Shown: positions 44,908 to 64,000 of the stretch, piece after piece
How the letters are laid out: each line of letters opens with the position of its first letter
How positions within the stretch are numbered: position 1 is the stretch's first letter
Source: an uncultured Pseudomonadota bacterium
GTDB taxonomy: Bacteria; Pseudomonadota; Gammaproteobacteria; Competibacterales; Competibacteraceae
Length of the DNA stretch: 64,000 bases
NCBI GenBank assembly: GCA_963708455.1
Contig: CAVPSQ010000003.1
Span: 241,442-305,441 of the forward strand
Reading direction: 5' to 3'
Program-made: the position numbers and the translations under genes
The notes under the pieces: model-generated
What the model saw: only the letters and a program-made list of their open reading frames with translations
The model's database searches: none
Told to the model about the DNA's origin: nothing

Positions 44908-44918
44908 GTGATTGACGG

Positions 44919-45800
44919 CTATCCCTGGCGCTGGAGCCACGCCATAAGTTCGGCAGGGGTGCGCCAATCCAGCAGAGCCTCCCCCAGCGCCTCCAACTCC
45001 GCCACCGGCAAGGTCCGAATCCGGCTCTCCACTTCCGTCGGCACCGCTCCCAGCCGGCGGTGCAAGAGCCGTAGCACCAGCGCCGCTGCTTCTTGCTGCT
45101 GGCCCTCGGTGCGGCCTTCGGCGTGCCCTTCGGTGCGCCCTTCGGCGAACACGTCTTGATAGAAGCGGGTTTGTTTCAACTCGACATCAGGTAAGTGCAA
45201 CATGCGTTGAATCTCCTCGCGCGATAAATGCGGCAGCTTGTACACCACAATCGTTTCGATCAAATCCAGCCACCCTGTCCAGTCGGGGTCCGCTGTTGGA
45301 CCACCCCGGACCTGCAACAGCGCTTGCGCCTGACTCACCGCTTCTTCCGGTTCGGCGACGATCAATTGGATCAGTTGCAAGCCTGGCGTCAGATCGGCGC
45401 GTCCCTTCAAGTCTTCGAGATAAACCCGCTTGACCCAGGGACTGTCCAGCAGCGGCTGGTAGGCTGTCGGCGGCTGAGGGTCTGCCTTCCGACTCGGAAA
45501 AATCACCACCGCCCGCCACGGTCCCTGCCACCGTCGCCGGTACAGAAACAGAAAAATCTGGGTAAACCAACGACTGTAGAAGTCGTTATTCAGTTGAAAC
45601 TGCGTCTCGACAAACACCCCTGGCAGGTGGGGCAGTTCCGGCGGTGGCAGTAGCAACCCATCGAGCCGGAAGCTGGTCTGTTTCACCTCTTCGGCATGCA
45701 GCGTGTAGACCGCCCCGGCAGGCGCCGGCCAATCAGCGAGTTCAAACACCAACCCCGGCAGTTCTTGAAACAAGCGGTAGAACAGACTATCAGTTTTCAT
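44919..45800 (-). CDS. Rpn-family recombination-promoting nuclease / putative transposase (PD-(D/E)XK plus DUF4351-like tail)
   Basis: Start at MKTDSLFYRLFQELPGLVFELA within ORF 44919..45866. Core FRLDGLL...GVFVETQFQ. EGRTEG repeats and a C-terminal LPVAELEALGEALLDW tail. Confidence 0.75.
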   Translation of the reverse strand: MKTDSLFYRLFQELPGLVFELADWPAPAGAVYTLHAEEVKQTSFRLDGLLLPPPELPHLPGVFVETQFQLNNDFYSRWFTQIFLFLYRRRWQGPWRAVVIFPSRKADPQPPTAYQPLLDSPWVKRVYLEDLKGRADLTPGLQLIQLIVAEPEEAVSQAQALLQVRGGPTADPDWTGWLDLIETIVVYKLPHLSREEIQRMLHLPDVELKQTRFYQDVFAEGRTEGHAEGRTEGQQQEAAALVLRLLHRRLGAVPTEVESRIRTLPVAELEALGEALLDWRTPAELMAWLQRQG

Positions 45801-45916
45801 AAAATTGCCTGAGAGTAGAGGCACATTATTCGGCCCAGGAACCGAAACCAGCGACAAAGCAATCAACGCGGTCCGTCTATTCTGATCGACTAGAACATAC
45901 AGGCACTTATCCTAAC

Positions 45917-47416: not shown

Positions 47417-47444
47417 ATTCAAAACTTGTTCTGGCTAATCATCA

Positions 47445-47704
47445 GCGACGCTCAACGCCAGGCAACGGTAGCTATCGAGGTCGTGCCGGCCATCCCGTTG
47501 CTACCTCCGGCGACATTAGCAGGCATCACAGATGCCGACATCCGGCAAACTCTGGAAGCGCTGTGGCTGGCGAGCCAGGGCGAAGTCTGGCGGCTGGAAG
47601 CCTATCAACGAGTGATGCCGCTGGAAGGGCAACACCGGCCGGCACGGTTACTGCGCTACAGTCTGGAGAAGGGGCAGGCGCCACCACCGGTCAAGGCGGA
47701 CTGA
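47445..47704 (+). pseudogene. 3' remnant of the secreted-protein gene (equivalent of about 36140-36770 deleted)
   Basis: DAQRQATVAIEVVPAIPLLPPATLAGITDADIRQTLEALWLASQGEVWRLEAYQRVMPLEGQHRPARLLRYSLEKGQAPPPVKAD matches the last 86 or so residues of 36144..37031. Confidence 0.85.
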
Positions 47705-47731
47705 GCGGATAGGTCTGAGCAAGGGGGGTTA

Positions 47732-48637
47732 CTATCTCTGTCGCTGGAGCCACGCCATGAGTTCGGCAGGGGTATGCCAATCCAGCAGGGCTTCCCCCAG
47801 CGCTTCCAATTCCGCCACCGGCAAGGCCCGAATCTGGTTCTCCACTTCCGCTGATACCGTGCCGAGCCGGCGGTGCAAGAGCCGGAGCACCAGCGCCGCC
47901 GCCTCTTGCTGTTGGCCTTCGGTGCGCCCTTCGGCACGGCCTTCAGTACGCCCTTCGACACGACCTTCAGTACGCCCTTCGGCGAACACGTCTTGATAGA
48001 AGCGGGTTTGTTTCAACTCGACCTCGGGTAAGTGCAACATACGTTGAATCTCCTCGCGTGATAAATGCGGCAGCTTGTAAACCACAATCGTTTCGATCAA
48101 ATCCAGCCACCCCGGCCAATCGGGGTCCGCTGTTGGACCACCCCGGACCTGCAACAGCGCCTGCGCCTGACTCACCGCCTCGTCCGGTTCGGCGACGATC
48201 AATTGCATCAATTGCAAGCCCGGCGTCAGGTCGGCGCGTCCCTTCAAGTCTTCGAGATAAACCCGCTTGACCCAGGGACTGTCCAGCAGCGGCCGGTAGG
48301 CTGTCGGCGGCTGAGGGTCTGCCTTCCGACTCGGAAAAATCACTACCGCCCGCCACGGTCCCTGCCACCGTCGCCGGTAGAGAAACAGAAAAATCTGGGT
48401 AAACCAACGACTGTAGAAGTCGTTATTCAGTTGAAACTGCGTCTCGACAAACACCCCGGGCAGATCGGGTGATTCCGGCGGTGGCAGTAACAGCCCATCG
48501 AGCCGGAAGCTGGTCTGTTTCACCTCTTCGGCATGCAGGGTATAAACCGCCCCGGCCGGTACCGGCCAATCAGCAAGTTCAAACACCAATCCCGGTTGTT
48601 CCTGAAACAGCCGGTAGAACAGGCTATCGGTTTTCAT
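47732..48637 (-). CDS. Rpn-family recombination-promoting nuclease / putative transposase (second copy)
   Basis: 301 aa. Roughly 90% identical to 44919..45800 by eye, with one more EGRTEG-type repeat unit. Confidence 0.75.
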   Translation of the reverse strand: MKTDSLFYRLFQEQPGLVFELADWPVPAGAVYTLHAEEVKQTSFRLDGLLLPPPESPDLPGVFVETQFQLNNDFYSRWFTQIFLFLYRRRWQGPWRAVVIFPSRKADPQPPTAYRPLLDSPWVKRVYLEDLKGRADLTPGLQLMQLIVAEPDEAVSQAQALLQVRGGPTADPDWPGWLDLIETIVVYKLPHLSREEIQRMLHLPEVELKQTRFYQDVFAEGRTEGRVEGRTEGRAEGRTEGQQQEAAALVLRLLHRRLGTVSAEVENQIRALPVAELEALGEALLDWHTPAELMAWLQRQR

Positions 48638-48766
48638 AAAATTGCCGAGAGTAAAGGCGAACCATTCAGATCTGGAGCGGTGGAGATACGTTGGTCATTA
48701 TGCCACGCTCAGCGGGCATTGAGAGGAACAGGAAAAGGCGCATGATGAGGATGGTAAACTTAAAAG

Positions 48767-49010
48767 ACAGAGGACACGCTGCGTACCTGCTGTGGTCAGC
48801 CGACCCTGCAACAGACGGTGGTCGGCGGCACGCTCTGGTCGTATGGCGCCCAGTGGGCCGCGCTGGTGCGGGAGGGGCAGGTGGCGGAGCCTCGCCCAGC
48901 GCTTCCAATTCCGCCACCGGCAAGGCCCGAATCTGGTTCTCTACTTGCGCTGATAAAGCGCCCAGGTGGCGGCGCAACAAGCGCAGTACCAGCGCTGCTT
49001 CTCCTTGCTG
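48767..49010. other. Mosaic scar: 3' fragment of the M48/TPR gene fused to an Rpn gene fragment
   Basis: 48767-48889 is homologous to 32745-32867 and 41150-41275 (..TLRTCCGQPTLQQ.VVGGTLWSYG.QWAALVREGQVAE). 48890-49010 is homologous to about 47790-47900 (antisense of Rpn). Confidence 0.8.
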
Positions 49011-49190
49011 CGCTGGCAACTTGAACAGACTGTGCTATGGTTCAAAGTAGGGCGACGGTTCGGAACGGTCGGTTTCAGGAAGCCGCGTCAGTCCTAACTG
49101 AATGCCCCAGCCGACCGTGCTACGCCGGTGGCTGAGCTTGAGGCGTTGGGCGGACGAGATGAATTTTTGCTCTCCTCGGAGATATAGACC

Positions 49191-51128
49191 ATGTTTGCGT
49201 TCGATCGAAAGCCACGTCCGTCTGCAATGCACTCTACTGCCCCGAAGCCCACCTCGCAGCATGCTGCCAAGAGACCCGCCGGTGAATCCACACTGGATGC
49301 GGCCATGGCGACCAACGCTCAAGCGGCTACCTTGCCTGAGATGACTGACGAGAGTCGGCGCTACAGGGAGGCGCGCTTCGGACACGACTTCAGCCAAGTG
49401 CGCGTGCATGCTGACAGCGAGGCAGCGAACGCGGAACCGGCGTCGGCCCGCTCCAAGCCCACCGGGGTCCAGCGCAAGTGCACGGAGGGCGACGAAGCAA
49501 AGGGGAAGACAGCTCCTACCGTCCAGCGCTCGGCCGCTGCCGACGCCTCAGAGACGAACTTCATCCATACACCGGTGGTCCAGGTCAAGGCGAGGACCAC
49601 CGGGAGCTTGCTGCAGGACAGCTTCCAATCCAAGCAGGGAGACGCGACCGGGCAGACCAGCGCGCCGGTGGCTCGAGTCCACGCGACAGCGCTGGCGGGC
49701 ATGCAGGGCGGGGCGCAGCCGCTGCCCTACCTGGACACCATTCAACGTGCCTTCCGCCGCCACGATGTCAGCCGGATCCAGGCCCATGTGGGCGGTTCGG
49801 CGAGCGCCGCGGCGGAGGCCATCGGCGCGGTCGCCTATACCGTCGGAGAGGCGGTCGCCTTCCACAGCGCCCCGGACCTGCACACGGCGGCGCACGAAGC
49901 GGCGCACGTCGTGCAGCAGCGCGCCGGCGTCGAGCTGTCGCACGGGCTCGGTCGAACCGGGGATCGCTATGAGCGGCACGCTGACGCCGTGGCCGATCGA
50001 GTGGTGCACGGGCAGGCAGCCGAGGGACTGCTCAGCGAGGTCGCGGACCCGGCCGGAGGTGCCCGCAAAGACGGCGATCTTGCCTTCGTGCAGCGGCAGA
50101 TCGTGTCGGACTCGTCCACGAAGACACCGACCACCTCAAACCCGAAGGCGCTCATCCCGCTCGCGCAGTTCATCCAGTACGTCGAGGCGGTGGAGAAGGC
50201 TTATCCGTCCGACACGCCGACGGACATCATCACACGCATCCGCGTCCAGTACTACAGCGGCGCCGCCTTCGAGAGCCTGATCCCGGACGCGCATTACGAG
50301 GACACTTACTGGGTACTGCACCCCGACATTACCTTCTCCGTTTCGCGAACGATGGACAAGGACAAGATCGACAAGGTCAATCCGGACGCCTATGAGCACC
50401 TGACCGCGCACGCCGACGAGAACAAGATCGGCGACAATCCCTCTCCCTACGTGGTGATGCCGAGTGGCGACAGGGTCGACGTCGGGCACCTCCTGCTCGG
50501 GCTCGACGCGCTCATTCACCCTCGTGCTGGCGACCCCTATGCCACGCTCGGGGTGCCCAACATCGATCCGGCGTCGTGGGTCGCGGATATTGGCATCGCC
50601 GCGGTGTGGATGACCCAGCACGAGGAGGCCGGCAGCCCACCGAGCGACGCGCCCAAGAAGTTGTCCAGTCCGGACCTCAATGCCTACTACCAGATGTCCG
50701 CGCCCAAGGAGGATCTGCTCAGCGACGTGGATTCGTTCGGCCTTCACGTCCAATTCGCCTCCAAGGCCAACCAGACGCTGTCGCAGGCGCTGCGCGCGTA
50801 TTACATCGGCAGCGCGACGCAGAGTGCCGGGGTGAAGCAGCGCTGGCAGACCTTCTGCAGCAAGAACGGGCTCGGCTATGCCCGCTCGGGCAACTCCATC
50901 ACCTGGAATGCGGGGACGCGGGCGGCGGTGATTAAGCGCGTCGATACGTTCAACGATCTGTACGGCGCAGGGAAGTTCGGCTCGATCTGGAACATGTTGA
51001 AGCAGAAGTCGGGCGCCACGATCGCGCGCCGGAGTTGGCCGCACACGCCAACGGTCGTCGACAAGTTCCTCAACTGGGTCAAGACGAACCTGGAGGCCGA
51101 GCTGAGCGCCGGCGGCACCAAGCCGTGA
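49191..51128 (+). CDS. DUF4157-domain (zincin-like) protein with an uncharacterised C-terminal domain of about 330 aa
   Basis: 645 aa. Partial DUF4157 signature [17 protein letters not shown], then a full one ([47 protein letters not shown]...[11 protein letters not shown], then [15 protein letters not shown]). Confidence 0.8.
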
Positions 51129-51451
51129 GCGGGCGCGGCAGGTTGGCACGGAAGGTGGTGATTGGTACGGCGAGCGTTCTGATCGTGCCGCTGGCGGCGG
51201 TGAGCGGGGTGGGGGCAGCCAGGGTCGTCGCCGGCGGCAACGTGTCGGACGTGGGCGTCGCGATGTATGAGCATGGCCAGGCCGCCATCGTCGTCGGTGC
51301 GGCGGTCTACATCGTAAGTGTCGCCGCACTGCTCGCCCTCCTCTCCAGAGCAGCAGGCGAGCACCGCCGCACACCCTATGTCGTGGGCCTCCCCCTGGCG
51401 CTCTGCGGCCTGGTTCTAACGACAGCACTGCTGCGCTTCACCTACGGATGA
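51125..51451 (+). CDS. Small three-TM membrane protein overlapping the DUF4157 gene stop (GTGA)
   Basis: GTG at 51125 is in frame with ORF 51035..51451. Hydrophobic spans are [43 protein letters not shown] and [19 protein letters not shown]. Confidence 0.5.
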
Positions 51452-51531
51452 CGGGCACGCGGCCGTCACGTGGGTTCTTTCTCGGCCTTCCGATCATTCC
51501 CCTCGTGCGGCTGGTCTCCCTGCCGCTCTTC

Positions 51532-51870
51532 GAGGACCACAAGAATCCGTTGGGAGGCAAAAAGGAACGTTACTACGACTGCCCTCTGGTACTGGTCGAG
51601 GTGAGTTCGCCGAGCACCCAGTATCTCGACCGCGCCAAGAAAAAGCAGGATTACATGCAGCTTCCCTCGTTGTCGCTGTATCTGATCATCGATTCCATCC
51701 GCAATCACGTGGCGGGTATCTATCGGCAAAGCGGCAATACCTGGGAGGAATTCGCTGTTACCAACGAGAGCACGATCGACCTGCCGGTGATTGGCGGACT
51801 GCCGGAGATCGCATTCACCGCAGCCCAACTTTATGAGAAAACGGGGGTAAAACAGAAGCTCATAGATTGA
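51532..51870 (+). pseudogene. N-terminally truncated Uma2-family (DUF820) endonuclease
   Basis: CPLVLVEVSSPSTQYLDRAKKKQDYMQLPSLSLYLIIDSIRNHVAGIYRQSG fits the Uma2 core (PDLvvEV.SpsT...D...K...Y...gv.eYwlvD). The N-terminal 80 or so residues are missing. GC is lower than the flanks. Confidence 0.6.
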
Positions 51871-52274
51871 GCAACCGGCGTATTTCCCGAACTCGCTGCC
51901 TATTTTGGCAACCGCTTCCCCGATTTTCAGCACCAGCTCCAGGACACCGGCAGTCAAGGATTGGGCATAACGTCGGGAGCGCCTTTTGGCGATGCTGCCA
52001 ATCTCAGCGAAAGCCCCATCACCGCGCTGGATCAGACAGCCAGGAATCAGTTATTCCAAATGATCTAACCGCAATATCGGCTGGGATGCTCTGAACAATC
52101 ATTACGCCCCTCCCCCAGTCTGGATGTGAACCTCGTTTTTTACCTACCGTATTCGCTTCCTGGCACGACTTCTCGCTCATTCAAGTTCCCTGCTATGCTT
52201 ATAAAAGTTCTGTCCTGCAGCGCTCAGCACAGAGCTACCGCGACAAGCATAATGAAGGACGCGACCTCATTCCG

Positions 52275-53036
52275 ATGGCAAAGATCTATATTTCTTCCAC
52301 TTACAGTGACCTTGAGAAACACCGCACCGCCGTCTACCGCACGCTCCAGCAGATGAGGCATGAGGTGATCGCCATGGAGGATTATGTCGCCACCGATCAA
52401 CTCCCAGTGGACAAGTGTCTGGCTGATGTCGCCGCCGGTGATCTGTACGTGGGCATCTTTGCCTGGCGCTATGGTTACCGGCCACCGCATGCAAACCCGA
52501 CCCACAAGTCCATTACCGAGCTGGAATACCGGCAGGCCCGGCAAACGGGCAAACCCTGCCTACTGTTTCTGACGGAGGAGAAAGAGGCAGCCGCCCCGCC
52601 GGAGGCAGATGCTGATGACTCGGAAGACTATCGGTGCATCCGGGCACTGCGCCGCGAACTGGAGCGAGGACATGTCGTCAGCTATTTCAGGAATTCTGAC
52701 CACCTCGCCAGCCTGGTGAGCCTTGCAGTCCGGGACTGGGAGCAGTCGCAGACAAAACCGGTCTACCAGCCGGGAGTCTGGGGACGTTGGTGGGCGGAAC
52801 TCACCGCGGCGCTGTTCGCACGCCGCCGCACCCAACGTTATCTGCGCAACCTGCTGGTGCAGCATCGTGAGTTCACCTTCCTTGGCCGGGCCAAGCCATT
52901 AAAGTTGGAGAACATCTATGTCAGCCTGAAGGTGGGAGAATACACATCCGCGGCGTTGCAGCCGGATGCGCCTGACGCCAGAGTTGCTGAAGAACCCCCC
53001 GCCCCGGTGGGCGAAGTGTATGGACCGGAGAGATAG
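52275..53036 (+). pseudogene. DUF4062-domain (TIR-like) STAND/NACHT-type gene, truncated by IS insertion before the P-loop
   Basis: MAKIYISSTYSDLEKHRTAVYRTLQQMRHEVIAMEDYVATDQLPVDKCLADVAAGDLYVGIFAWRYGY...SITELEYRQARQTGKPCLLFL fits the DUF4062 pattern. The ORF runs into the IS inverted repeat at 53016 and stops at 53036. Confidence 0.7.
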
Positions 53037-53164
53037 GTAACAGGTGTTCGGAGACATCGGTAACACCTGTTCGGAGACATAGGTAACACTGAAAAACTAT
53101 CATGAGATGATGTGTATTGACTTCATGCCGGTGTCCTAATACCAAATATTAGTAAAATATTACT

Positions 53165-53826
53165 TTAATTAGTATCTGGTGCCATACCAATTTTTTGAAG
53201 GGCATCGAAGATAAACTTCCTGCTAGTTAATGAGGCAAAGAACGCTTTTGATTTGGATGAAAAAAGCTGTTTTACCTTCTCTTTCAAGACATCCAGATTA
53301 GGAAAAATCTGATTAGCAATTTCACCTTTAGCCCATTCCCATAACTGCTCGGATGAGTTTACTTGGGGGCTGTGCGGGGGTTGATAAAGTAGCATTACAT
53401 TATCCGGCATCACCAAGTCATTCGAACAGTGAAAGCGCGCATTATCGGTTTGAAGGATGTGAAAATCGTTCGGGTACTGTTGTGAAAAATCATTGAGAAA
53501 TTGCTGAAAATTTTCAGTATTCACCTGATCATAATCTTGAATCATGCACTCACCAGTCAAGGGTTTCACCGCACCATACAGATAGAACGCTTTAAAGAGC
53601 CATTGCACCTTGACCAGTGGTTTGACTTTTTTCAGGGTAATCCGCCGCCGCGTGATGGTCTTCAGGCCAAACCGACTTTCGTCCTGGGTCCAATAACGAA
53701 TCTTTGAATATCTTTCTAAACAAGGACTTGCAATTTCATTTAGGCTGGCCGGCACGATTTTTTTTTAAAGTCTTCAACAGCGTCCGGATCGTAACCAGTC
53801 GCATACGGTCGAGGCACTTTGAGGCA
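53165..53826 (-). pseudogene. IS630 transposase, C-terminal (DDE) half
   Basis: ..IRYWTQDESRFGL...ILQTDNARFHCS...LLYQPPHSPQVNSSEQLWEWAKGEI carries the Tc1/IS630 DDE blocks. It is separated from its N-terminal half by the IS4 insertion. Confidence 0.8.
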
Positions 53827-53836
53827 GGCCTTGAGC

Positions 53837-55303
53837 CTGTCCATTACACACATCTTGTAGAACGAACCGCCGCCTCCATCTAAGGGAGGTAGATGCAGAC
53901 GACTGAGGTACAAGTGATGACGGACACGGCGGCGGGAAGTTGGGCAGCGGCGGAACTGGCGGGAGCGGACTTGGGCGATGCCCGGCTGAACCGGCGGCTG
54001 GTGCAGGTAGCGCAACAACTGGGCGCGCAGCCTGGCGCGAGCATTCCGGTGGCGTGCGGGGGCTGGGCGGAGACGCAAGCGGCGTATCGATTGCTGGCGC
54101 ACGAGAACGTCGACTGGGAATCGGTGCTGGCGCCGCACTGGGACGGTAGCGTCGAGCGGATGCGGGCGCATCGGGTGGTGCTGTGCGTACAGGACACGAC
54201 CGAGTTGGATTTCACGTCCCAGCCGGGAATTGGCGGTCTGGGACCGCTGAGCTATTTGCGACAGCACGGAGTGTATGTGCATCCTACCCTGGCGGTGACC
54301 CCGGACGGGGTGCCGTTGGGAGTGCTGGATGCGTGGTTGTGGGCACGCGACCAGAAGACCTTTGGCGACGACAAACGCCACTGGCCCATCGAGGCCAAAG
54401 AGAGCATGCGCTGGCTGGAAGGATTTGAGCGGTGCGCGGAACTGGCCGCCACATTGCCGGACACCCGGTTGGTCTATGTCGCCGATCGGGAATGCGATAT
54501 TCATGAATTCATGGTGCGTGCCGGCCGCTGGCCGGGCATCGACTGGCTGGTTCGGGCCACCCACAACCGCTGCCTGGCGGAGGGTGATAAACTCTGGGAC
54601 CGGCTGGCGAAAAGCGCGGTGTTGGGTGAAGTCCGTTTCATCCTGCCCGCCCGGCCGGGACGGCCCAGCCGGCCGGTGGTGCTGACCGTCCGCGCGGAAC
54701 GCGTGACCCTGCAACCGACGGGTGGCGAAGCGGTCACCGTGACCGCGTTACGGGCGCGGGAAGAAGCCCCGCCAGCGGATGTCGAGCCGCTCGACTGGCG
54801 GCTGCTCACCAACCGCCCGGCCGACACTCTCGCCCACGCGGCCGAGTTGCTCCAATGGTACGCAACTCGTTGGAGCATCGAGGTTTTTTTCAGAATTTTC
54901 AAAACCGGCTGCCGCGTGGAAGCGTTGCAACTGAGCACCCTGGAGCGGCTGCAACCGGCCTTAGCCTTGTATCTGATCATCGCGTGGCGGATTCAGTATT
55001 TGACCTTGCTGGGGCGGGCCACCCCCGACCTGCCTTGTGATGCAGTCCTGGACCCGGCCGAATGGCAGGCCGTCTACGTCGCAATTCACCGCCGGCCGCC
55101 GCCGGTGACCCCACCGTCGCTGCCCGTCATGCTCCGTTGGATCGCCCAACTGGGCGGCCATTTGGGGCGCAAGCATGATGGGCCACCCGGTCCCAAAGCC
55201 CTCTGGATCGGCTTGCAGCGAGCTCGCGACCTTGCCTGGGGTATGCAATTGGCGTCTGATCTCCATTCCCAATCAACCGGTTAGAGATGTGTGTAATGGA
55301 CAG
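53837..55303 (+). mobile_element. IS4-family element inserted in the IS630 transposase gene
   Basis: 19-bp perfect TIRs: CTGTCCATTACACACATCT (53837-53855) and AGATGTGTGTAATGGACAG (55285-55303). 10-bp target duplication GGCCTTGAGC (53827-53836 and 55304-55313). Confidence 0.9.
53893..55284 (+). CDS. IS4-family DDE transposase (intact)
   Basis: 463 aa. Y-x2-R-x3-E-x6-K signature in YATRWSIEVFFRIFK. Confidence 0.85.
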   Translation: MQTTEVQVMTDTAAGSWAAAELAGADLGDARLNRRLVQVAQQLGAQPGASIPVACGGWAETQAAYRLLAHENVDWESVLAPHWDGSVERMRAHRVVLCVQDTTELDFTSQPGIGGLGPLSYLRQHGVYVHPTLAVTPDGVPLGVLDAWLWARDQKTFGDDKRHWPIEAKESMRWLEGFERCAELAATLPDTRLVYVADRECDIHEFMVRAGRWPGIDWLVRATHNRCLAEGDKLWDRLAKSAVLGEVRFILPARPGRPSRPVVLTVRAERVTLQPTGGEAVTVTALRAREEAPPADVEPLDWRLLTNRPADTLAHAAELLQWYATRWSIEVFFRIFKTGCRVEALQLSTLERLQPALALYLIIAWRIQYLTLLGRATPDLPCDAVLDPAEWQAVYVAIHRRPPPVTPPSLPVMLRWIAQLGGHLGRKHDGPPGPKALWIGLQRARDLAWGMQLASDLHSQSTG

Positions 55304-55313
55304 GGCCTTGAGC

Positions 55314-55723
55314 CGGTATTTGACGGTTCCAAAAACGGTTGAATAAGGTACCTCTAAGCCATGCGTTTCTTTGAGCCAAACTTGGATAGCTTTGTAACTG
55401 GCAAACCCCTCGGGTTGGGCAAGTTTTTCTTTTAATTGCCATTGGATTTCCACCGGTATAGAGGGTGCTAAATTGCCACCTCGATAATTTAGATGGAGTA
55501 AACTGTTTAATCCTCGGGTACGGTAGATGTTGATCCATTGCCCGATGGCAACCTGACTCCGGTTCAACAATTTCCCCAACGCTTGCCGAGTCTTGGCTTG
55601 GCCTGTTTTGTACCAGTATAGAAACTGTAATCGTTCACGCTTGCGAACATCTTTCTCTTGCTTGAGTAAAGCTTCTAGGGTTTCTGGTGACTCTATCACT
55701 TCAAATTTAAACACTCGGCACAT
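55314..55723 (-). pseudogene. IS630 transposase, N-terminal (HTH) half
   Basis: MCRVFKFEVIESPETLEALLKQEKDVRKRERLQFLYWYKTGQAKTRQALGKLLNRSQVAIGQWINIYRTRGL... ends at ..VKYRLKA, at the IS4 junction. Confidence 0.8.
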
Positions 55724-55779
55724 GTTTTTTCCTCCACATTAAATGCTTATATAATACACTATTTTAGTAGTATTTGGTA

Positions 55780-56898
55780 TAAGATCAATCCGAGTGACCT
55801 TATGGTGACAGAAGTAGATATCAAACTGGCCCTCGGTGTTAACGGGCCGCAATGCCACCGGGTAACCTTGCAAGGCGCTACTGACGGTAAACAACCGCCC
55901 TTGGAAGTGCACCACCCCTTTGTTTTGCACCCTGCGGACCCGATCATCCGGACCGTACTCAATTGGCGGCAGGGTTTCAGGAAAGGAACAGGGACTGGGT
56001 TGATAGCGGCTGATCGGGACAGCCATGTCCAGAGCCTGATGGGGGCGCTCCCGGTTGTACACCTCCCGCCACCGATCAAAGGCCCCTTGACACACCGACA
56101 ACGACGCAAAGTACTGGTCACGCAACACCTCTGCCTTGAGGGTACGATGAAACCGCTCATCCTTTCCCTGGGTCTGCGGATGATAGGGATGACTATGACT
56201 GATGCGAACCCCCAAGCGGATCAGCCACAGGACCAGGGCCGACAGGGTTTGCTGGCCCTCGCCCCCCCAGGGTGGGCCATTATCCATGAGCATCCGTTCC
56301 GCAAGCCATAGCGCCGAAAGGTCGCGGTCAGGGCCGCTTGCACCGTGGCGCCCTGTTCGTCCCCACACGCCTGCAGGCAGACCGCGAAGCGGGAATGGTC
56401 ATCCAACACCGTCAAGGGATGGCAGCGGCCTTGGGCAATGGCAAAGTGGCCTTTGAAGTCCATCTGCCACAAGCGATTGGGGGCTACCTGTTCAAAGCGA
56501 TGCCACGGCTGATGCTTACGCCCGTCTGCTGCACTCAACCGCTGATGGCGCCGCAAAATAGCCGTCATGGTGCTCGCACTGGGCAAGGCCGTCTGCCCCT
56601 GGGCCTGCAGGTAGGCGCGGAGTTTGCGCCCACCCCAGGCGGGATGGGCATCCCGCACCGCTACGATCATCTGCTCGAGCGCCGCCACCGTTTGACGCGG
56701 CGACCGGTATGGCCGGTGGTCACGCTCGACCAACGCTTCCAGACCCCCGGCACGAAACCGCTTCAGCCATTGGTAACCGGTCTTGGTACTGATGCCATAC
56801 CGGTGGCACAAGGTTCTCATCTCGATCTGCGCTTGGTTGGCCAACAGGACAAACTCTTGCCGTACTGCCAGCGACACTCTCTGTTGCGACATCAACAT
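55780..56898 (-). pseudogene. IS481-family transposase, frameshifted (1-nt deletion near 56300) and split by IS630
   Basis: N-terminal frame ..LWQMDFKGHF...TFRRYGL, then a second frame ERMLMDNGPPWG...HPYHPQTQGKDERFHRTLK. The expected join is RRYGLPERML. Confidence 0.8.
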
Positions 56899-57051
56899 TC
56901 TCCTCTAGGAAAATGCTGGTCAGCTTAAAAGAATGTTACCGATGTCTCCGAACAGGTGTTACCGATGTCTCCGAACAGTGTTACCCATCTCTCCGAACAG
57001 GTGTTACCGATGTCTCCGAACACCTGTTACCTATCTCTCCGGTCCATACAC

Positions 57052-57154
57052 GCCGCACCCCAGTGCGGCATTGTAATGACGCCAGTGGCAATGGCGAGAG
57101 CCGCACTGTGGGGTGCGGCGCTCCCAGGGTGCCAGCGGCAACGAATGTCTGGAC
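57052..57154. repeat. Partial copy of the palindromic core of the 17.3-kb MITE (REP-like)
   Basis: 57100-57154 is the reverse complement of 17355-17406 with 1 mismatch and a 2-nt indel. 57052-57069 (GCCGCACCCCAGTGCGGC) is the opposite arm, abutting the IS481 end. Confidence 0.8.
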
Positions 57155-57162
57155 ATGAGCCA

Positions 57163-58065
57163 TTAATTCGACTGATGCGATTGGCTGAGTGTGCTGCCCA
57201 GCGATTCCAGATAATCGCGGAATTGGGTGCCGAGTTCAGGGTGCTTGAGACCGTACTCGATATTGGCGATCAGATAGCCCAGCTTGTTACCGCAGTCGTA
57301 GCGCCTTCCTTCAAACTCATAGGCTAATACCTGCTCTTCCTGGAGTAAAGCAGCGATGCCATCGGTCAGTTGGATTTCGTTACCGGCTCCCTTGGGTGTG
57401 GTCGCCAATAAATCGAAAATCCGCGGTGTCAGGATATAGCGGCCTACCACCGCCAGATTGGAGGGAGCGTCTGCCGGTTTCGGTTTCTCCACAATGCTAT
57501 CCACATTGCTTAAGTTCTGGGCGAATGCCAGGGGATGGACGATGCCATATTTGTAAGTTTCCTCCTCGGGCACTCGTTCCACGCCCAGGATGGAGCACTG
57601 ATATTTATGGAAATGAGTAGCCATCTGCGCCAGAGCACCGCCTCGGGGTGCATCGATCAAGTCATCCGCAAGCAGGATGGCAAAGGGTTCATCGCCGACC
57701 ACCGCGCTGGCGCACAGCACGGCATGGCCCAGACCCAGCGCCTCCGGCTGCCGGATATAGACGCAGGTGACGCCGGAGGGAACGACCGCGCGTACCAACT
57801 TAAGCAAATCCTCCTTGCTCCTGGCTTCCAGTTCCGCTTCCAGTTCATAGGCTTTGTCGAAGTGATCCATGATGGAATTTTTGGTGCGACCGGTGATAAA
57901 AACCAAAGTATCCACCCCGGCCGCCATCGCCTCCTCGACGCCGTACTGGATCAGGGGTTTGTCCACAACGGTCAGCATTTCCTTCGGATTGGCTTTGGTA
58001 GCCGGCAGAAACCGGGTTCCCAGACCAGCCACTGGGAAAACTGCTTTACGAACTCTCCGTTTCAC
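57163..58065 (-). CDS. galU: UTP-glucose-1-phosphate uridylyltransferase
   Basis: 300 aa. The N-terminus [35 protein letters not shown] is the GalU signature. Confidence 0.9.
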
Positions 58066-58164
58066 GGAATCGACCTCGTTGGTTTTGATGGATTAGGATA
58101 GGGGTCACACCCAATGTAGTGAGATTGCTACACATTGCCGGTGATCTTTAGTGGAAAATAGAGC

Positions 58165-58193
58165 TTGACATTTCTTTAAAATGAGCTATAAAT
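58165..58193 (+). promoter_or_regulatory. Near-consensus sigma-70 promoter upstream of 58237
   Basis: TTGACA (58165-58170), a 16-nt spacer, then TATAAA (58187-58192), about 45 nt before the ATG. Confidence 0.45.
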
Positions 58194-58236
58194 ACTACAC
58201 AACAACTTTCAAGCTACTTACAGAGGAGCAGTTCCC

Positions 58237-61200
58237 ATGTTGTTCTCTCTAAGCTCAACCCTATCGGCCGCTACCCAGGAAGAGTTCGAGCAAAGCAAAG
58301 CGATATTCGAAACTATTCTGCAGAGACAACTCAAGGAAGATCTGAATACACTCATCCAAGCGAAACAACCCGTTGACTTACCGTGGGTGATCGGGCCGAT
58401 CGCCGTGGTCAACGAAGACACCCGCATCAATCTCATTGAACGCATCCTGAATTCCCTGGGGTGGTTCTATCAGCAGTTGTTTCCTGAACCTCCCCGACAA
58501 CCCCGTCTGCCTTTCGCACAGCTCTTGGAGCCTATCTACCATCCACAAACCAGAGAGATAACCAGTTTAGCATATCTGGTCGTTCATGCTCTGACCCGCA
58601 GTTATCTGGCCTTCACCCAACCGCACTATCATGACTTCCTATCCGCCGTGCTGGCCCGTGAGGATCTGGTCAGCAATAATGTCTACTCGGCCCCGTTGGC
58701 CAACCACGTTGCGACCTTAATAGAATTTCAAAATGGCGTGCGCACGGCGTTGCTAGGCAAACAGGAAAGCGAGGTCGGCGTATGGACCGGGACCGGATTC
58801 AAACTGGATCCGGACAGCGTCGCGCCCATCCTGTGGCGGGAGATTTTACAAGAATGGCAAGGCGGTGCCGCGATCAGCAGAGAGGCAGTGATCCTGGCTC
58901 ACCTTGCGGTTGCGCTGAGCTATGAAAATCGTTGGACCAAGTCCGCCGCCGAAGCAGCGCCCGACGGCAGCGCCTTGCCTCGTATCGAACGGCAGATCGC
59001 TGAGGCGCAACGTGTTCTCAAGCAGCTGGGCGAGCTTGGCGAAGATGCGCTGGCAGCGGAAGGCGTATTGTGCATTTTCGAATTCGCCAGCTATGCCGTC
59101 GGTAAGGGGGGGCTGGAAAAATTTGCGCAGACCTCCTTAGCGCCACTGTTGCAGGCGCCCTTACCGCAACGGGCCTGGCTGAGTTTTGGCCGCTTCTGGT
59201 CCAACAATGAAGCCGCACGGCTGAGAGACTGGCTGGCCAGACAGCAAGCGCCGGTCAGGTTTGCGGAGGACAAGCACCACCGGCTGGCGACCTTGCGGCC
59301 ACAACCCTACGAGCAGCTAAGAACCCTGTTTGCTTATCTCGACCCGACGCCGGCAGACCGCTTTGAAATTTTATTTGGCGAAAAGCCCGCGAGTTCTTCT
59401 TCTATCTGGGACTTGTTGTCAACAGCGTTTGGCTGGTTTCAGCAGCGCCGTTCTCTGGATGGACAGACAACATTGCCGGTTCCCGCTGTCAGCAGCATTT
59501 TGAAAATGCTGGAAGTGATCTATCCCGATCACTTCTGCTGCGTGCGCATCAATCAGGCGCATCCGCAGTTACCCGATGTGCAGCTTAAAAGCCGCGTCAT
59601 CGTGCTCCCGGGCGATTATCCTCAACCGGATGAATTGGAGCAGTTGGTCGGCCAGGCGGAACAGGACGCGCAACAGTGGCTGGCTCCAAGACTGGTGGTG
59701 ACCCGTTATGCAGCCGCTGAACTCCTGAACCAACGGCTGGCGTTTGGTTCGGGTCCTTTACAGTTGCAATTTCAGTTGAATACAACCGATCAATCCTCTG
59801 TCTCTACAATCACCAAGGGTTGGTTACAGGCCATCGAGTGGCTGGAGAATCGCAATCACCACGCCACTTTATTGCATTACACTGAGCAGGCCGCCAGTCC
59901 GCGTGAAGACGCCGCCACCGATTTGTTACAGGAAGAAGGTTTTGCCTTGCCAGACCTCAGCGATGAGGCGTGGGCTTTATGTATAGACATCGGTGGAACG
60001 GGCATTAAAGGTGGGCTGTATCCTCTGCTGCAACAAGAGCGCGGCTATCAACTGGGAGACGCGCCGGAGCTGATCTTTGCTTTTGCCACCGAGCCTGAGA
60101 AAGATTATGGTGAAATAACCGGTGAAGGACGGTATCTGAATGGCCGACAATTTGCCGCGCGGTTACATAGCAAGTTGCTGGATACTTGCCAAGAGGCGAT
60201 TGGAAAAGGCGAGACCACGGCGGAAAAAATTTACAAACCTATCGCCATCATCGGCTTGACCTGGCCTGGCGCTGTTTCAGGCGAGAGAGGGCGTGAGTAC
60301 GTCTCGGCGACTTCAAAAATCCTCAGCCGGTTTTCCGGTCTGACTGATGAGATTGCTCGCAACTCACCGATACAAATACATCTGTTGCGAATCCGTGAAA
60401 ATATCGCCGATGTATTCCGTGAATCTGAACAATTCGGATATCAGCAACAGCCGCAACGGGCGCCATTGGTCACCCTGCTGAATGACGGGGAAGCGCATAC
60501 CCTGGCTTCCTTGGATCAATTCGACGCCAGCGATTTGCCGCCCGGCTGCGCCATTGTGCTCACGGCCGGGACGGGGACTGCGCTGGGCGTGCTGCGCGAT
60601 GGGGAACCTTTACCCCTATTGGCGGAAGCAGGCAAATTCGTCATGGATCTGGCGGTGCCGTTTACGAAGCAGGGCAATTTCCCCGTCGGCGCTGGTAACA
60701 AGATGTTTTCGACCAATACCTTCCCGGAACTGGCTGCACAGATTATCCACGCCTATGAGCAAGCGAGGCGGCGACAATCTCTGCCAGCGGAGCCGTCGGC
60801 AATACCGATGCTGCCGGTCAAAGCGGTCGAGCTTGGCTATTATTGTGCCGAGTTGCTCGAGGATTCGGCTGGCGCCGAACAGTGCGCGAAAGAGTGGTAT
60901 AAGAGTTATGCCGAGGAGCAATTGAGAAATCCGGTGCTGCCGTTTGAAGGCAGGCAGGATTATCGTGAAATCATGACCAAACGACAGCAAGTGCTCAGAA
61001 ATGCACTGCGCTACTATGGCGATCCTAATGTCGCCTCTATAGGCAGTCCAAACTACGCTGTCTTGCAACAGGTCATTGCTCCTATATGGGATAACATTAA
61101 GGCTGAAAGCCGAGGTCTGGACGGTCTTTTGACATTTGTGGCAGAAACCGCTTATCGCGCTGGGTGTCTGCTGGCCGATTTAATTGCAGGAGCCGATGGT

Positions 61201-61710
61201 TTGTTCGGCATCAACATCGCATTGACTACCGGCGGTCCGATGTCAGGCGCCATGGGCCAGATCGTCAGAGCGTTCGCCCGCTATGAGTTGCGGGAAGCCT
61301 ACGGTTATAACGTGGTCGAAGTTTTTAAGGAACGCCGTGACCGCTACCGCCCGCTGCGTTTGCGTGGCATTTATTTCCCTGAACCGAGTCGTGAAACGTT
61401 GACCTCCGCCGCCTGGGGGGCCGGCAAAGCGGCGCTGGAACTGTATAAAGATAAATATAAGCAGAGCGAGTTGTTGCGACTGGAAGAGTGGTTACGCGCC
61501 CGCCACCCCGGCGCCAAAGTCAGGTTAGATAAAACCCGCGCTGAGCAAGGCGTCAACCGGTTGGTCAGCGAAGACGCTGCTATCGATATTCATGTGAGCG
61601 ATGTGGCGGCTTATTTGAATCGATATAAGGCGCATCTGGGTCTTTGTGTAACGCAGGGTTCTGTGGATGAGTTCATCAAATTGGATAATCTGGATATCCA
61701 CATTTTGTAG
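58237..61710 (+). CDS. Large two-part protein: unrecognised N-terminal domain of about 570 aa plus an expanded ROK-like (ASKHA-fold) kinase domain
   Basis: 1157 aa. ASKHA/ROK motifs appear in order: LCIDIGGTGIKGGLY, GLTWPGAV, LLNDGEAHTLAS, VLTAGTGTALGVL, ALTTGGPMSG. No ROK CxCGxxGC zinc motif was seen. The N-terminal half has no motif I recognise. Confidence 0.75.
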   Translation: MLFSLSSTLSAATQEEFEQSKAIFETILQRQLKEDLNTLIQAKQPVDLPWVIGPIAVVNEDTRINLIERILNSLGWFYQQLFPEPPRQPRLPFAQLLEPIYHPQTREITSLAYLVVHALTRSYLAFTQPHYHDFLSAVLAREDLVSNNVYSAPLANHVATLIEFQNGVRTALLGKQESEVGVWTGTGFKLDPDSVAPILWREILQEWQGGAAISREAVILAHLAVALSYENRWTKSAAEAAPDGSALPRIERQIAEAQRVLKQLGELGEDALAAEGVLCIFEFASYAVGKGGLEKFAQTSLAPLLQAPLPQRAWLSFGRFWSNNEAARLRDWLARQQAPVRFAEDKHHRLATLRPQPYEQLRTLFAYLDPTPADRFEILFGEKPASSSSIWDLLSTAFGWFQQRRSLDGQTTLPVPAVSSILKMLEVIYPDHFCCVRINQAHPQLPDVQLKSRVIVLPGDYPQPDELEQLVGQAEQDAQQWLAPRLVVTRYAAAELLNQRLAFGSGPLQLQFQLNTTDQSSVSTITKGWLQAIEWLENRNHHATLLHYTEQAASPREDAATDLLQEEGFALPDLSDEAWALCIDIGGTGIKGGLYPLLQQERGYQLGDAPELIFAFATEPEKDYGEITGEGRYLNGRQFAARLHSKLLDTCQEAIGKGETTAEKIYKPIAIIGLTWPGAVSGERGREYVSATSKILSRFSGLTDEIARNSPIQIHLLRIRENIADVFRESEQFGYQQQPQRAPLVTLLNDGEAHTLASLDQFDASDLPPGCAIVLTAGTGTALGVLRDGEPLPLLAEAGKFVMDLAVPFTKQGNFPVGAGNKMFSTNTFPELAAQIIHAYEQARRRQSLPAEPSAIPMLPVKAVELGYYCAELLEDSAGAEQCAKEWYKSYAEEQLRNPVLPFEGRQDYREIMTKRQQVLRNALRYYGDPNVASIGSPNYAVLQQVIAPIWDNIKAESRGLDGLLTFVAETAYRAGCLLADLIAGADGLFGINIALTTGGPMSGAMGQIVRAFARYELREAYGYNVVEVFKERRDRYRPLRLRGIYFPEPSRETLTSAAWGAGKAALELYKDKYKQSELLRLEEWLRARHPGAKVRLDKTRAEQGVNRLVSEDAAIDIHVSDVAAYLNRYKAHLGLCVTQGSVDEFIKLDNLDIHIL

Positions 61711-61790
61711 TGTCAGTTGCGCCAGATAATGGCCGGCGCTGAGAGGTGCGTGCTACCCATGCGACGAGGGCCAATGTGAGCCGGTCCAAC

Positions 61791-62681
61791 ATGAGCCTGT
61801 CGCTGGCTGACATGAAGAATGTGGTCAGCATGGTGGACAACCAAGTGGACAGCGTGGCGGCTGCTGCTGAATTGCTGGGGACCGACCGCGCTTATGTCTA
61901 TCGGCTGATTCAGCGGGTCAACGACACCATCGGTCGCGATGCGCCGCCATGGCGGGACGGCGCGCGGCTGGTCATTCCGGCGGAGATTCATCGCCTGGCG
62001 ATGCGGATGCGGAATCTGGCTGCCGCCTTCGATGAGGCGACCCGTTTTCCCCGGATTGCCGCCGGCAGCACGATCGCGATTTTGGTCCACGAAGTGTTGC
62101 ATGAGTTGGGCTGGGAACACAGTGCCTATCAGATATTGCGCTCCACCGGAGCGGTGCAGGCTGTGTGCGATAAAGAGGTCGATATCGCCCTGTTGCACGA
62201 AAGTTCCTTGGAGCATGGCAAGGGCGGTCAGGAATTACCGGCGGAATTGGCAATGGTGAAGTTGTTGGAGTGGCGGGCGGTTATGGTGGAGCCGCCTCAC
62301 CCCCCGGAGCGACAAGAAACGGAAACTCGCTGGCTGCTTTCCTGGCCGCCGGCTACCCATGCCGCCCGATTGAACGCCAGGGCGTTGGGCGCAGCATGGG
62401 AACAGTCCAAAGCAAACCCTGGGCCGCACCTGGGCTCGTATGTCGCGGCACTGGAGGCGATCCGCATCGGACTGCCTTTCAAGACGGTTATCCCGGATAT
62501 TTATTTGATGCCGGCGGATTGGCAAAACTTGAAGGTTACTGATTTGTCGTCTATGGTTAAGGAGTGGTTGGTTGGGTTGTATCGGGGTTGTGATCGGCAG
62601 CGGTTGCAGAGTTTACTGAGCCCTCATGAATGGGAAAAAATAGGGATAAGACGGCGCGGGGTAAACCTGAAGATAATTTGA
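61791..62681 (+). CDS. LysR-like regulator-type protein (HTH plus periplasmic-binding-like fold)
   Basis: ORF 61746..62681; ATG at 61791 preferred. HTH-like SVAAAAELLGTDRAYVYRLIQRV. The remainder has the length of a LysR effector domain. Assignment is tentative. Confidence 0.5.
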   Translation: MSLSLADMKNVVSMVDNQVDSVAAAAELLGTDRAYVYRLIQRVNDTIGRDAPPWRDGARLVIPAEIHRLAMRMRNLAAAFDEATRFPRIAAGSTIAILVHEVLHELGWEHSAYQILRSTGAVQAVCDKEVDIALLHESSLEHGKGGQELPAELAMVKLLEWRAVMVEPPHPPERQETETRWLLSWPPATHAARLNARALGAAWEQSKANPGPHLGSYVAALEAIRIGLPFKTVIPDIYLMPADWQNLKVTDLSSMVKEWLVGLYRGCDRQRLQSLLSPHEWEKIGIRRRGVNLKII

Positions 62682-62700
62682 GATATTTGGGGAGAGCAAC

Positions 62701-64000
62701 ATGTCTAACTTAGCTAAATTTGAGTCTGATTTACTATCTATCGTGTTATCACGCAATACTATAGAGTTGACAGAAGAGAAAATAGATGAAAATCAAAAAA
62801 CTTCATTAGAGAAGCGATTGAAAAATCGACTCAAAACAGAATTAGATTTTTTTTTTAAAAATCCCGAAATAAAACAGGCAATTATTAACTCTATTTTAAA
62901 ATATCAATCAGATTGGGGGATTCGCAATCAGATTTGGCCTCGTATTCAGAATAGCTTGAGAAAATTTCATGATTTTTGTTTTTCAGAAAAATTTAATGCA
63001 ACTTGGGAACTCTCTCGTAAAGACCTTTTCAAGCTTATTTCTGATAATAGCAATTCAAAATGCTGTGTAACAACGCCAGCGATGCTGGTATTGGAAGCAA
63101 TTCTATACAGCCATCAAGAATGGGCTCGACCTTTTTACCATGATATATGGTCAGCGGGCCAAGCTCGTGCTGACATATTACGTAGAATTACCAAAATGGA
63201 TACTGAAAAAAGAGGGGTTCGAGATAGCTTCATAAATAAAATTGTGACTATGATCTCATTTCAGAATATTTTCCGTAATGGATTGCTGGACCCAATGGAA
63301 GTAGGGGTGTGGGATGGAAAGAATACGTGTATAACAGAAGATGTTCGAGTAAGAAAGGCGTTGATCCGAGAGGTTTTCAGACTCTGGGCCCCAGAAGGAT
63401 TGGAGGATAAGAAAATAGCTTTGAGTGCAATAGCAGCTTGTTCTCTTAGCCATGAGGGACGTATCAGTTTAGGCCACAATTTTTTGAAAAAATGCGATGT
63501 ATTCAAACAACTATATGATTGTATTTGTATTGACGGCAACTGGTATTCTGATGAAGAAGCTATACTTTATTATTTTGAGTATGCAAATTATATGTTTATT
63601 CGGGGAGGAAGTGATCAATCAACACAGCAGCAAAGAGAAGAATTTCAACAATTTGCTGAAGAAGTGCTGGAAAAGAATATCCCGGTTCAAGGTGTCAGTG
63701 AGCAACCATCAATGATTTTCCTTAGCTTCGGGCGTTTTTGGTCAAATCGAGAGATAGACAATTTTTATAAAAATAGAATGAATTTTGCAAAATCTTTCGA
63801 GGTAGAAAAAAACGCGCAGCTTAAAACTTTACAAAAGGCTTTACTTGACACAAGTGGTAAAACCAGATTTGCTCATTTAAAGATTGATCCAAAAGAAGCT
63901 TTTAAACTATTCTTTGATGGATTAGAATGTTCCCCATCTTTAGTTGTAGATAACGATCCGAAAAAAATATGGCCCTGGATAGACAGCGCTATCCAGTGGA
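62701..64000 (+). CDS. AT-rich open frame (433+ codons, runs off the window), paralogue of the N-terminal domain of 58237..61710
   Basis: Translated codon by codon from ATG 62701 (RBS GGGGAGAG) to 64000 with no stop, in DNA of about 35% GC. Shared blocks with the 58237 protein, in the same order: P.YHD..SA, FQN, EVGVW.G, LSFGRFWSN, IW....S(A/T)..W. It is absent from the ORF track because no stop lies in the window. Confidence 0.8.
   Translation, partial: MSNLAKFESDLLSIVLSRNTIELTEEKIDENQKTSLEKRLKNRLKTELDFFFKNPEIKQAIINSILKYQSDWGIRNQIWPRIQNSLRKFHDFCFSEKFNATWELSRKDLFKLISDNSNSKCCVTTPAMLVLEAILYSHQEWARPFYHDIWSAGQARADILRRITKMDTEKRGVRDSFINKIVTMISFQNIFRNGLLDPMEVGVWDGKNTCITEDVRVRKALIREVFRLWAPEGLEDKKIALSAIAACSLSHEGRISLGHNFLKKCDVFKQLYDCICIDGNWYSDEEAILYYFEYANYMFIRGGSDQSTQQQREEFQQFAEEVLEKNIPVQGVSEQPSMIFLSFGRFWSNREIDNFYKNRMNFAKSFEVEKNAQLKTLQKALLDTSGKTRFAHLKIDPKEAFKLFFDGLECSPSLVVDNDPKKIWPWIDSAIQW

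Follow-up and report, generated by a model that had tools for sequence, protein, structure and literature searches.

GNE, the bifunctional UDP-GlcNAc 2-epimerase/ManNAc kinase, carries an enzyme domain N-terminal to a ROK-type kinase domain and performs two steps on one sugar. ROK kinases and the polyphosphate-glucose phosphotransferases (PPGK) share one series of ASKHA motifs: DxGGT, PG, ND (which holds the catalytic Asp), GTG, ExG and GG. We analysed a 64,000-nucleotide (nt) stretch of DNA from an uncultured bacterium of the family Competibacteraceae (contig CAVPSQ010000003.1; hereafter the window). Near its right end, a gene for a protein of 1157 amino acids (aa), gene A (58237-61710, plus strand, in the window's list of open reading frames, ORFs), is followed by the gene of a LysR-type regulator and by the first part of a paralogue of gene A, gene B; in relatives, a gene for a NAGPA-like protein comes next. 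Like GNE, the product of gene A has an N-terminal domain fused ahead of a ROK-type kinase domain. However, the N-terminal domain of GNE is a known epimerase fold, whereas that of gene A has no neighbor in the PDB at E ≤ 1e-3, and GNE has neither a NAGPA-like nor a LysR-type partner. The window covers the left three quarters of an operon that is both rare and horizontally mobile. In the libraries searched, neither the N-terminal domain (N-domain) nor the overall architecture has a described counterpart, and the other three parts (the ROK-like domain, the regulator and the NAGPA-like protein) belong to known superfamilies, from which they have diverged strongly.

The gene order in relatives is galU (minus strand), gene A (~1160 aa), the regulator gene (~285 aa), gene B (1167-1257 aa, with both domains) and the NAGPA-like gene (~320 aa). 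This full order was found with intact genes in loci L001, L002, and L005, and loci L006 and L017 share it, with some genes broken by indel errors in the contigs. The series from gene A through the regulator gene and gene B to the NAGPA-like gene was present in at least five genomes. The galU neighbor is shared by L001, L006, and L017 and is a trait of the Competibacteraceae-type loci only, distant loci being without it. In the window, the ORF of the regulator opens with a GTG at 61746 (311 aa) and stops at 62681; its orthologues start at the ATG at 61791. The ATG of gene B at 62701, 20 nt past that stop, opens a frame that was translated for 433 codons without a stop to the end of the window, and gene B is absent from the ORF list because its frame leaves the window there. 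The 1157-aa ORF, the 433-codon frame behind the regulator gene and the four pairs of peptide blocks described in the original prediction were all present.

When residues 1-570 of gene A were compared with the 433-aa frame of gene B by BLASTP, a single colinear alignment was obtained (26% identity over 439 columns, E = 1e-23). Because of this E value, the likeness is beyond chance; chance similarity was ruled out, and the proposal that the two genes are highly divergent paralogues held up, the similarity being statistically significant. In a neighbor-joining tree, the B genes and the single-copy gene of L008 formed one clade, sister to the A genes and L009. Gene B is an old paralogue, the alleles of which have been repeatedly swapped between lineages.

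Among the window, L001, and L005, the identities were 88% for galU, 74-75% for gene A, 66-80% for the regulator and 85% for the NAGPA-like gene (the last from relatives, since its place in the source genome would fall beyond the window), and only 34-40% for gene B. Compared with L015, gene A of the window was more distant (63%) and gene B was closer (70%), while the regulators of L015 and L006 were 91% identical and their B genes ~45%. Between the window and L015, synonymous divergence (dS) was 0.44 for gene B versus 1.96 for gene A, and the ratio of nonsynonymous to synonymous divergence (dN/dS) was 0.36 for gene B versus 0.11-0.13 for gene A; the value of 0.36 indicates that the N-domain of gene B is under purifying selection. 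The GC content fell from ~0.55-0.60 to 0.34-0.41 precisely where gene B starts, and in all five loci examined, gene B had 36-41% GC and lay between genes of 52-62% GC, in agreement with the earlier description of the second copy as foreign-looking. Gene B has been replaced horizontally, because the B alleles do not track the relationships of the flanking genes, and gene A (63-75% identity) is vertically conserved. In sliding windows, the identity to L015 climbed from ~0.65 to ~0.80 near 62250-62350, and the identity to L001 and L005 dropped from ~0.75 to ~0.45-0.5 near 62510-62610. This places the left breakpoint within the 3' portion of the regulator gene (~62250-62600), and recombination has replaced the B cassette over the stretch from the regulator's 3' end to the NAGPA-like gene. 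The allelic replacement, the NAGPA-like partner and the fusions of this partner had gone unseen in the original prediction, mostly because the evidence is outside the window.

The fusion of the two domains is the norm in this family. Every member longer than ~830 aa has the N-domain and the same C-terminal region, the long members being 1000-1631 aa, and gene B carries both domains in L001, L002, L005, and L017, with full length and intact ROK-like motifs in L001 and L005. In the source contig, the gene B product (P0005) has only 563 aa and ends with ...IMIVARYAVCCNS before the stop; from this length, the frame of gene B ends ~390 nt beyond the window, without a ROK-like domain. At this end point, the family sequence reads ...ARYAA(V/T/A)AILNQ..., and one extra T (GTT to GTTT) converts ARYAVAAILNQ to exactly ARYAVCCNS and a stop. 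However VCCNS plus stop is encoded, its +1 frame can read xAAILN, which its +2 frame cannot. Gene B therefore probably has a one-base +1 frameshift ~375 nt beyond the window, as judged from these sequences, and this frameshift could equally be an assembly error. The original prediction had allowed that a stop or frameshift just past the window might reveal a pseudogene; the end of the frame at 563 aa, as one extra T predicts, agrees with this in part. All family-conserved residues of the N-domain are kept in gene B. The second copy of the window is, by this comparison, the odd one out and not a designed stand-alone version. The earlier idea of a designed pairing between a kinase-fused and a stand-alone copy was not upheld, since all long members, including the intact B genes, bear both domains. 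As a separate observation on assembly quality, many genes were split in L006 and L017 (ENA sample ERZ25039459), the isoleucyl-tRNA synthetase being in five pieces and genes A and B each in several. Apparent truncations from such data are not trustworthy because these assemblies are indel-rich.

The N-domain of gene A had no match in Pfam, NCBIfam, PHROGs or PADLOC when the window proteins were searched, and nothing consistent was found for this domain when all 39 family members were compared with Pfam, NCBIfam and PADLOC. A sequence search of the PDB also returned no match for it. An AlphaFold2 (AF2) model of residues 1-575, made with the 39-sequence family alignment, showed a mixed alpha/beta fold with a mean local confidence (pLDDT) of 85.9 and a predicted template modelling score (pTM) of 0.85; a full-length model made with only seven sequences was unusable (pLDDT 43.8). 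When the N-domain model was searched with Foldseek, no neighbor in PDB or BFVD was found at E ≤ 1e-3. The N-domain called unrecognised in the original prediction thus stayed so in the family libraries and in PDB and BFVD, despite a model of pLDDT 86.

The best Foldseek lead, and the sole structural one, was the CC-adding enzyme of A. aeolicus (PDB 3WFO-3WFS; E 0.008, ~285 columns, TM-score 0.22-0.32, root-mean-square deviation 13 Å), a class II tRNA nucleotidyltransferase (PMC4810234). We treated this likeness as unsupported: a class II nucleotidyltransferase reading was rejected on a probability of 0.1% in hhalign against E. coli Cca/PcnB, the lack of a GG...DxD motif and the poor TM-score. 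The readings of the N-domain as a degenerate ROK-like, NAGPA-like or regulator domain, or as an internal repeat, were likewise rejected after comparison. The residues conserved across the family are R69, T109, S122, H132, D133, S136, N166, R169 (100%), E179 (100%), R232, E282, S316, R319, and W391, and several of them are at strand ends in the AF2 model. From this arginine-rich, charged site, the N-domain may bind a phosphorylated ligand. Its confident fold and conserved charged site make a new enzymatic activity plausible.

The C-terminal half of gene A contains the ASKHA motifs DIGGTGIKGG (584-593), WPG (676-678), ND (749-750), AGTG (777-780), AEAGK (796-800), and GGP (999-1001). The first of these (DxGxT, PHOSPHATE-1) was aligned with its counterparts in 1woq and NagK and was invariant in nine diverse members; the catalytic N749-D750, G778-T779-G780 of PHOSPHATE-2, the sugar-binding E797-x-G799, and G999-G1000 of the adenosine motif were also invariant, in the canonical order and aligned to their ROK counterparts. 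PDB entry 1woq was aligned at DIGGTGIKGG and at the ND...GTG motifs. A profile of 23 sequences matched E. coli NagK/Mak/NanK/AlsK in hhalign with 88% probability in local mode (E 2.9e-6) and 96% in global mode (E 1e-9) over residues 579-1069, with the motifs in register; the 23-sequence profile was required, a 9-sequence profile of the C-domain giving only 10%. The negative controls (N-domain vs. ROK, and C-domain vs. nucleotidyltransferases) gave 0.1%. In NCBIfam, gene A matched PPGK at 3.7e-5, with a score of 23.6 bits that is far below the 250 required. PPGK was matched by four family members; allose kinase, pantothenate kinase II, and xylulokinase were each matched by single members. Pfam ROK (PF00480) was matched at 7e-4 by two of the 39 members, and Glucokinase by two. 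These comparisons bear out the ROK-like domain of the original prediction, with its ordered motifs, large insertion and missing zinc motif, and the C-terminal half is homologous to the ROK fold at the profile level and falls outside the curated ROK/PPGK families.

Several features set this domain apart from ROK and PPGK. Gene A has a ~145-aa insertion (aa ~822-966), a 90-aa C-terminal extension and, always ahead of the kinase-like part, an unrelated N-terminal region of 575 aa. The insertion takes the position of the zinc motif of ROK proteins (GHx9-11CxCGxxGCxE), which was not found in gene A; the ExGH histidine of ROK kinases is a lysine, and the aligned region has no cysteine motif. PPGK is likewise without the zinc motif. 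Kinase activity is predicted from the sequence.

A gene for a NAGPA-like protein of ~320 aa follows the big gene or genes in L001, L005, L006, L017, L008 and, in a more distant form, L009. The protein reached the threshold of Pfam PF09992 (NAGPA) with 27.5 and 27.0 bits (cut-off 25) over the catalytic-loop segment, model positions 92-150 of 169 only. In human NAGPA, a DGGGS motif with the catalytic Asp is essential (PMC13474241). The partner has a loop DNGGS at the place of DGGGS (ENSGS or DSGAT in two members), and it had no sequence match in the PDB. Compared with NAGPA and bacterial DUF2233 proteins, the match covers only about a third of the Pfam model, and the partner, which appears to be cytoplasmic, is in some cases joined to the kinase-like protein. 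Such a fusion, of a NAGPA-like domain to the C-terminus of the big protein, was found in four family representatives (P0015, P0018, P0021, and P0024), and because of it, the NAGPA-like domain and the big protein are functionally linked. Adjacent in six loci and fused in four representatives, the NAGPA-like protein is an obligate partner of the big protein. No paper linking ROK with phosphodiester glycosidases was found in the literature.

The gene between A and B had been called LysR-like, and its product was indeed matched to OxyR/CysB/LysR and a LysR-type regulator of Competibacteraceae (L001) by hhalign with 96.4% probability (E 1.2e-9, 229 columns) over both domains: the N-terminal helix-turn-helix (HTH), the linker helix and the two-lobed effector domain all align. 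Unlike OxyR, CysB and LysR, the regulator was below the Pfam thresholds (LysR_substrate 8.3e-5 and HTH_1 1.5e-3, each in two of eight orthologues, with a weak HTH in the window protein), is co-directional between structural genes instead of divergently transcribed, and has a 3' end that belongs to the exchanged cassette. In sequence comparisons, orthologues adjoined the big gene in L001, L005, L006, L015, L017, L008, and L011; they were also found at distant single-copy loci (30-41% identity), and in L018, the gene that follows the big gene (293 aa) aligned to the regulators with 26% identity. The regulator is thus a dedicated, divergent LysR-type partner of the big protein.

The near-consensus sigma-70 promoter noted earlier ahead of gene A was confirmed (TTGACA, 16 nt, TATAAA) and is kept in two relatives; the consensus scan left it out on account of the final A in its -10 hexamer. 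A TGTAG-N8-CTACA dyad is at about -75 from the inferred transcription start, with GTAG-N8-CTAC kept in L001 and one mismatch in L006. This dyad could be an operator for the LysR-type partner. No Rfam match was found in 56900-64000.

The family is rare. Among 1.84 billion cluster representatives, an exhaustive HMMER search gave 38 proteins that match the N-domain profile at E ≤ 1e-3. In a word-indexed search of 5.8 billion proteins, gene A had three relatives besides itself (63-75% identity), one of them from a Candidatus Competibacteraceae metagenome-assembled genome (MAG), and gene B had one relative and its own full product, P0005. Among 185,579 GTDB species representatives, the family was found in one (a related MAG), and two short contigs were found in JGI metagenomes. 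One distant member was from a Spirulina MAG, and all named members were annotated as "hypothetical protein". Searches by tblastn of IMG/VR, 72,556 plasmids and 50,697 phage records gave no match, and a phage or plasmid origin was rejected on this result. PADLOC-DB v2 had no match for gene A, the regulator or gene B; over the 39 members, PADLOC gave sporadic coiled-coil matches (LmuB, JetC) in one or two members with coiled-coil insertions.

The surroundings of the module were rich in mobile and toxin-antitoxin-type genes. PIN/AAA_35 or MNT genes are downstream in relatives, integrase and DUF5906 genes are near the module in L011 and L012, and IS66, PIN and Uma2 genes surround it in L019. In L018, P0024 is on a plasmid-like contig (5753-15538), between a Rep3 initiator with a transposase and a zeta toxin with an integrase. 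A flavin amine-oxidase-type gene (NAD_binding_8 and Amino_oxidase) was seen divergently upstream of the big gene in the distant loci L011 (2664-4091), L012 (6175-7602) and L019 (3480-4220) and may be a further clade-specific partner.

We tentatively propose that the operon encodes a cytoplasmic module for processing sugar phosphates or phosphoglycans, a reading that we consider quite possible and short of probable. The three enzymatic parts would act on one cytoplasmic carbohydrate-phosphate substrate (a sugar phosphodiester or phosphoglycan): the NAGPA-like part would cleave a sugar-1-phosphodiester, the ROK-like domain would use ATP or polyphosphate to phosphorylate a hydroxyl group of a sugar, and the arginine-rich conserved patch of the N-domain may serve to bind this phosphorylated substrate or to process it. 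Expression would be turned on by the LysR-type protein in response to a ligand, possibly via the dyad upstream of the promoter, and the exchangeable B copy would set the substrate or target specificity. The Competibacteraceae hosts are glycogen-accumulating bacteria of wastewater plants, in which carbohydrate and phosphate handling is central. In the source genome, only gene A is certainly intact, gene B probably being interrupted by the single-base insertion.

Several points weigh against this carbohydrate-phosphate reading. The hypervariability and horizontal exchange of gene B are unusual for a plain metabolic cytoplasmic enzyme, and the toxin-antitoxin genes, integrases, insertion sequence (IS) elements and plasmid genes around the module fit a conflict system at least as well. 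The galU gene is adjacent in one clade only. The ROK-like domain is below every curated family threshold, with no Pfam ROK match in gene A and 23.6 of the 250 bits required for PPGK; the NAGPA-like match is confined to a part of the Pfam model, with the glycine after the Asp replaced, and the gene is known from relatives, since in the source genome it would lie beyond the window. The activities of all parts are predicted from their sequences.

The neighborhood and the behavior of gene B bring up a different explanation, that the operon forms a conflict system, anti-phage or inter-genomic, of a kind not described so far, which we regard as unlikely and yet a serious rival. The big proteins would then be ATP-dependent sensors or effectors, and in an arms race the hypervariable, horizontally exchanged B copy would determine which target is recognised. 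The NAGPA-like domain would act as an effector or process a signal, with the LysR-type protein controlling expression. The extreme rarity and patchy spread (38 clusters among 1.84 billion, from Competibacteraceae to a Spirulina MAG), the replacement of B alleles with persistently low GC, a dN/dS for gene B about three times that of gene A, the PIN, AAA_35, MNT-type NTP_transf_2, zeta toxin, Uma2, integrase, Rep3 plasmid and IS neighbors, and the resemblance of the upstream window to a conflict island (TPR-CHAT, eCIS_core, DUF4062) are all consistent with such a system. However, PADLOC gave no specific match and only SMC-like coiled-coil models in one or two members, no nuclease, NADase, pore or protease effector was recognisable, and no homologues were found in the phage, IMG/VR and plasmid collections searched; some loci are single-copy, without the variable paralogue, and metabolism is the usual setting of LysR-type regulators and of ROK/NAGPA chemistry. 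By analogy with O-antigen and capsule loci, gene B could instead be the variable, low-GC specificity gene of a pathway for diversifying or remodelling an envelope or storage polysaccharide, its products making or editing sugar-phosphate decorations with UDP-glucose from the adjacent galU. The position of a hypervariable, low-GC gene within conserved flanks, sugar-kinase-like and phosphodiester-glycosidase-like chemistry, the divergently adjacent galU, the rmlC and rmlD genes nearby in L001, and a glycosyltransferase/GtrA gene and glgB near the L019 copy would suit this idea. We nevertheless consider it quite improbable: inspection by eye, without a prediction tool, found no signal peptide or hydrophobic N-terminal segment in the A, B and NAGPA-like sequences, the conserved core has no glycosyltransferase, flippase or polymerase, and the galU/rml adjacency is confined to one clade, with phaC-pta between galU and rml.

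There may also be no joint function at all, gene B being a decaying duplicate (a pseudogene here) and only gene A, or neither, being active; this alternative is partly independent of the others. The B product stops at 563 aa within a conserved motif, as a frameshift would cause, gene B evolves faster than gene A, and single-copy loci exist, from which one copy suffices. On the other hand, the B genes of L001 and L005 are of full length, their ROK-like motifs intact, and that of L017 has both domains; the N-domain of gene B keeps all family-conserved residues with a dN/dS of 0.36, below 1, and the order of gene A, regulator, gene B and NAGPA-like gene recurs in at least five genomes. The frameshift is in a T-run, and other assemblies of the clade have evident indel errors, so that it may be an assembly artefact. 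We judge simple decay to be a poor candidate.

If the carbohydrate-phosphate reading is true, the operon is an undescribed multi-enzyme module, the core domain of which has no relative in curated libraries or solved structures, and the association of a sugar-kinase-like protein with a cytoplasmic glycosidase resembling the "uncovering enzyme" would lead to a sugar-phosphodiester chemistry hardly studied in bacteria. The conserved gene A beside a swapped, AT-rich gene B is a natural experiment on specificity, with a signature usual for defence or surface-variation loci. A bolder version, which we think unlikely, is a new kind of system for "phosphorylation by uncovering" or for sugar-phosphodiester sensing, in which a new N-terminal enzyme fold, a ROK-like kinase and a cytoplasmic NAGPA-like glycosidase would act on a cellular or invader-derived phosphoglycan, and the AT-rich gene B would be a specificity cassette traded under an arms race, as part of a defence/conflict system or of a glycan-editing pathway.

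Table 1. Features of the operon and its flank in the window (positions in nt of the window).
Feature	Position	Strand	Basis or remark
galU-type NTP_transferase gene, 300 aa	57163..58065	-	Pfam NTP_transferase 5.5e-29; 88% identity to L001 neighbor; divergent from gene A
Interrupted dyad TGTAG-N8-CTACA	58115..58132	.	Sequence reading; candidate operator (inferred)
Sigma-70-like promoter, TTGACA-16 nt-TATAAA	58165..58192	+	Hexamer regions kept in L001 and L005
Ribosome-binding site GAGGAG ahead of gene A ATG	58223-58228	+	Sequence reading
Gene A N-terminal domain, aa 1-485, unrecognised alpha/beta	58237..59691	+	AF2 model, conservation
Gene A helical connector, aa 486-578, starting with VVxRYAAxxLLNQ	59692..59970	+	Kept in all long members; model helices 484-566
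Gene A ROK/PPGK-like ASKHA domain, aa 579-1069	59971..61443	+	Profile comparison, 1woq alignment
Gene A C-terminal extension, aa 1070-1157, and stop	61444..61710	+	Fused NAGPA-like domain at this place in four distant representatives
Divergent LysR-type regulator gene, 296 aa from ATG	61791..62681	+	hhalign; orthologue start
Left boundary zone of exchanged cassette, 3' part of regulator gene	62250..62620	.	Sliding-window identity
Gene B, first 433 of 563 codons, AT-rich (36% GC)	62701..64000	+	Paralogue of gene A N-domain; ORF end ~64392

Upstream of the operon, the window contains a run of conflict-type genes at 41386-53036, with those for a 1173-aa TPR and CHAT protein, a CHASE2 protein, a DUF2887/DUF4351 protein, a 645-aa eCIS_core (DUF4157) protein and a DUF4062 protein. 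An AT-richer patch (41-42% GC) is at ~53000-53750. It is followed at 53893-56898 by a pile-up of insertion sequences, with a transposase of the Tn5/IS4 type (53893-55284) and one of the IS481 type. The latter is split into overlapping ORFs on the minus strand (56221-56898 and 55739-56368), which suggests a frameshift or decay. In relatives, phaC-pta is upstream of galU where the window has these insertion sequences. Between the IS481-type element and the 3' end of galU, at 56929-57041, a 45-nt unit was matched at least four times, with overlaps and at a spacing of 22-23 nt. This implies about five copies of a 22-23-nt repeat, ACAGGTGTTACCGATGTCTCCGA, which could be the end of an insertion sequence or a small repeat array.

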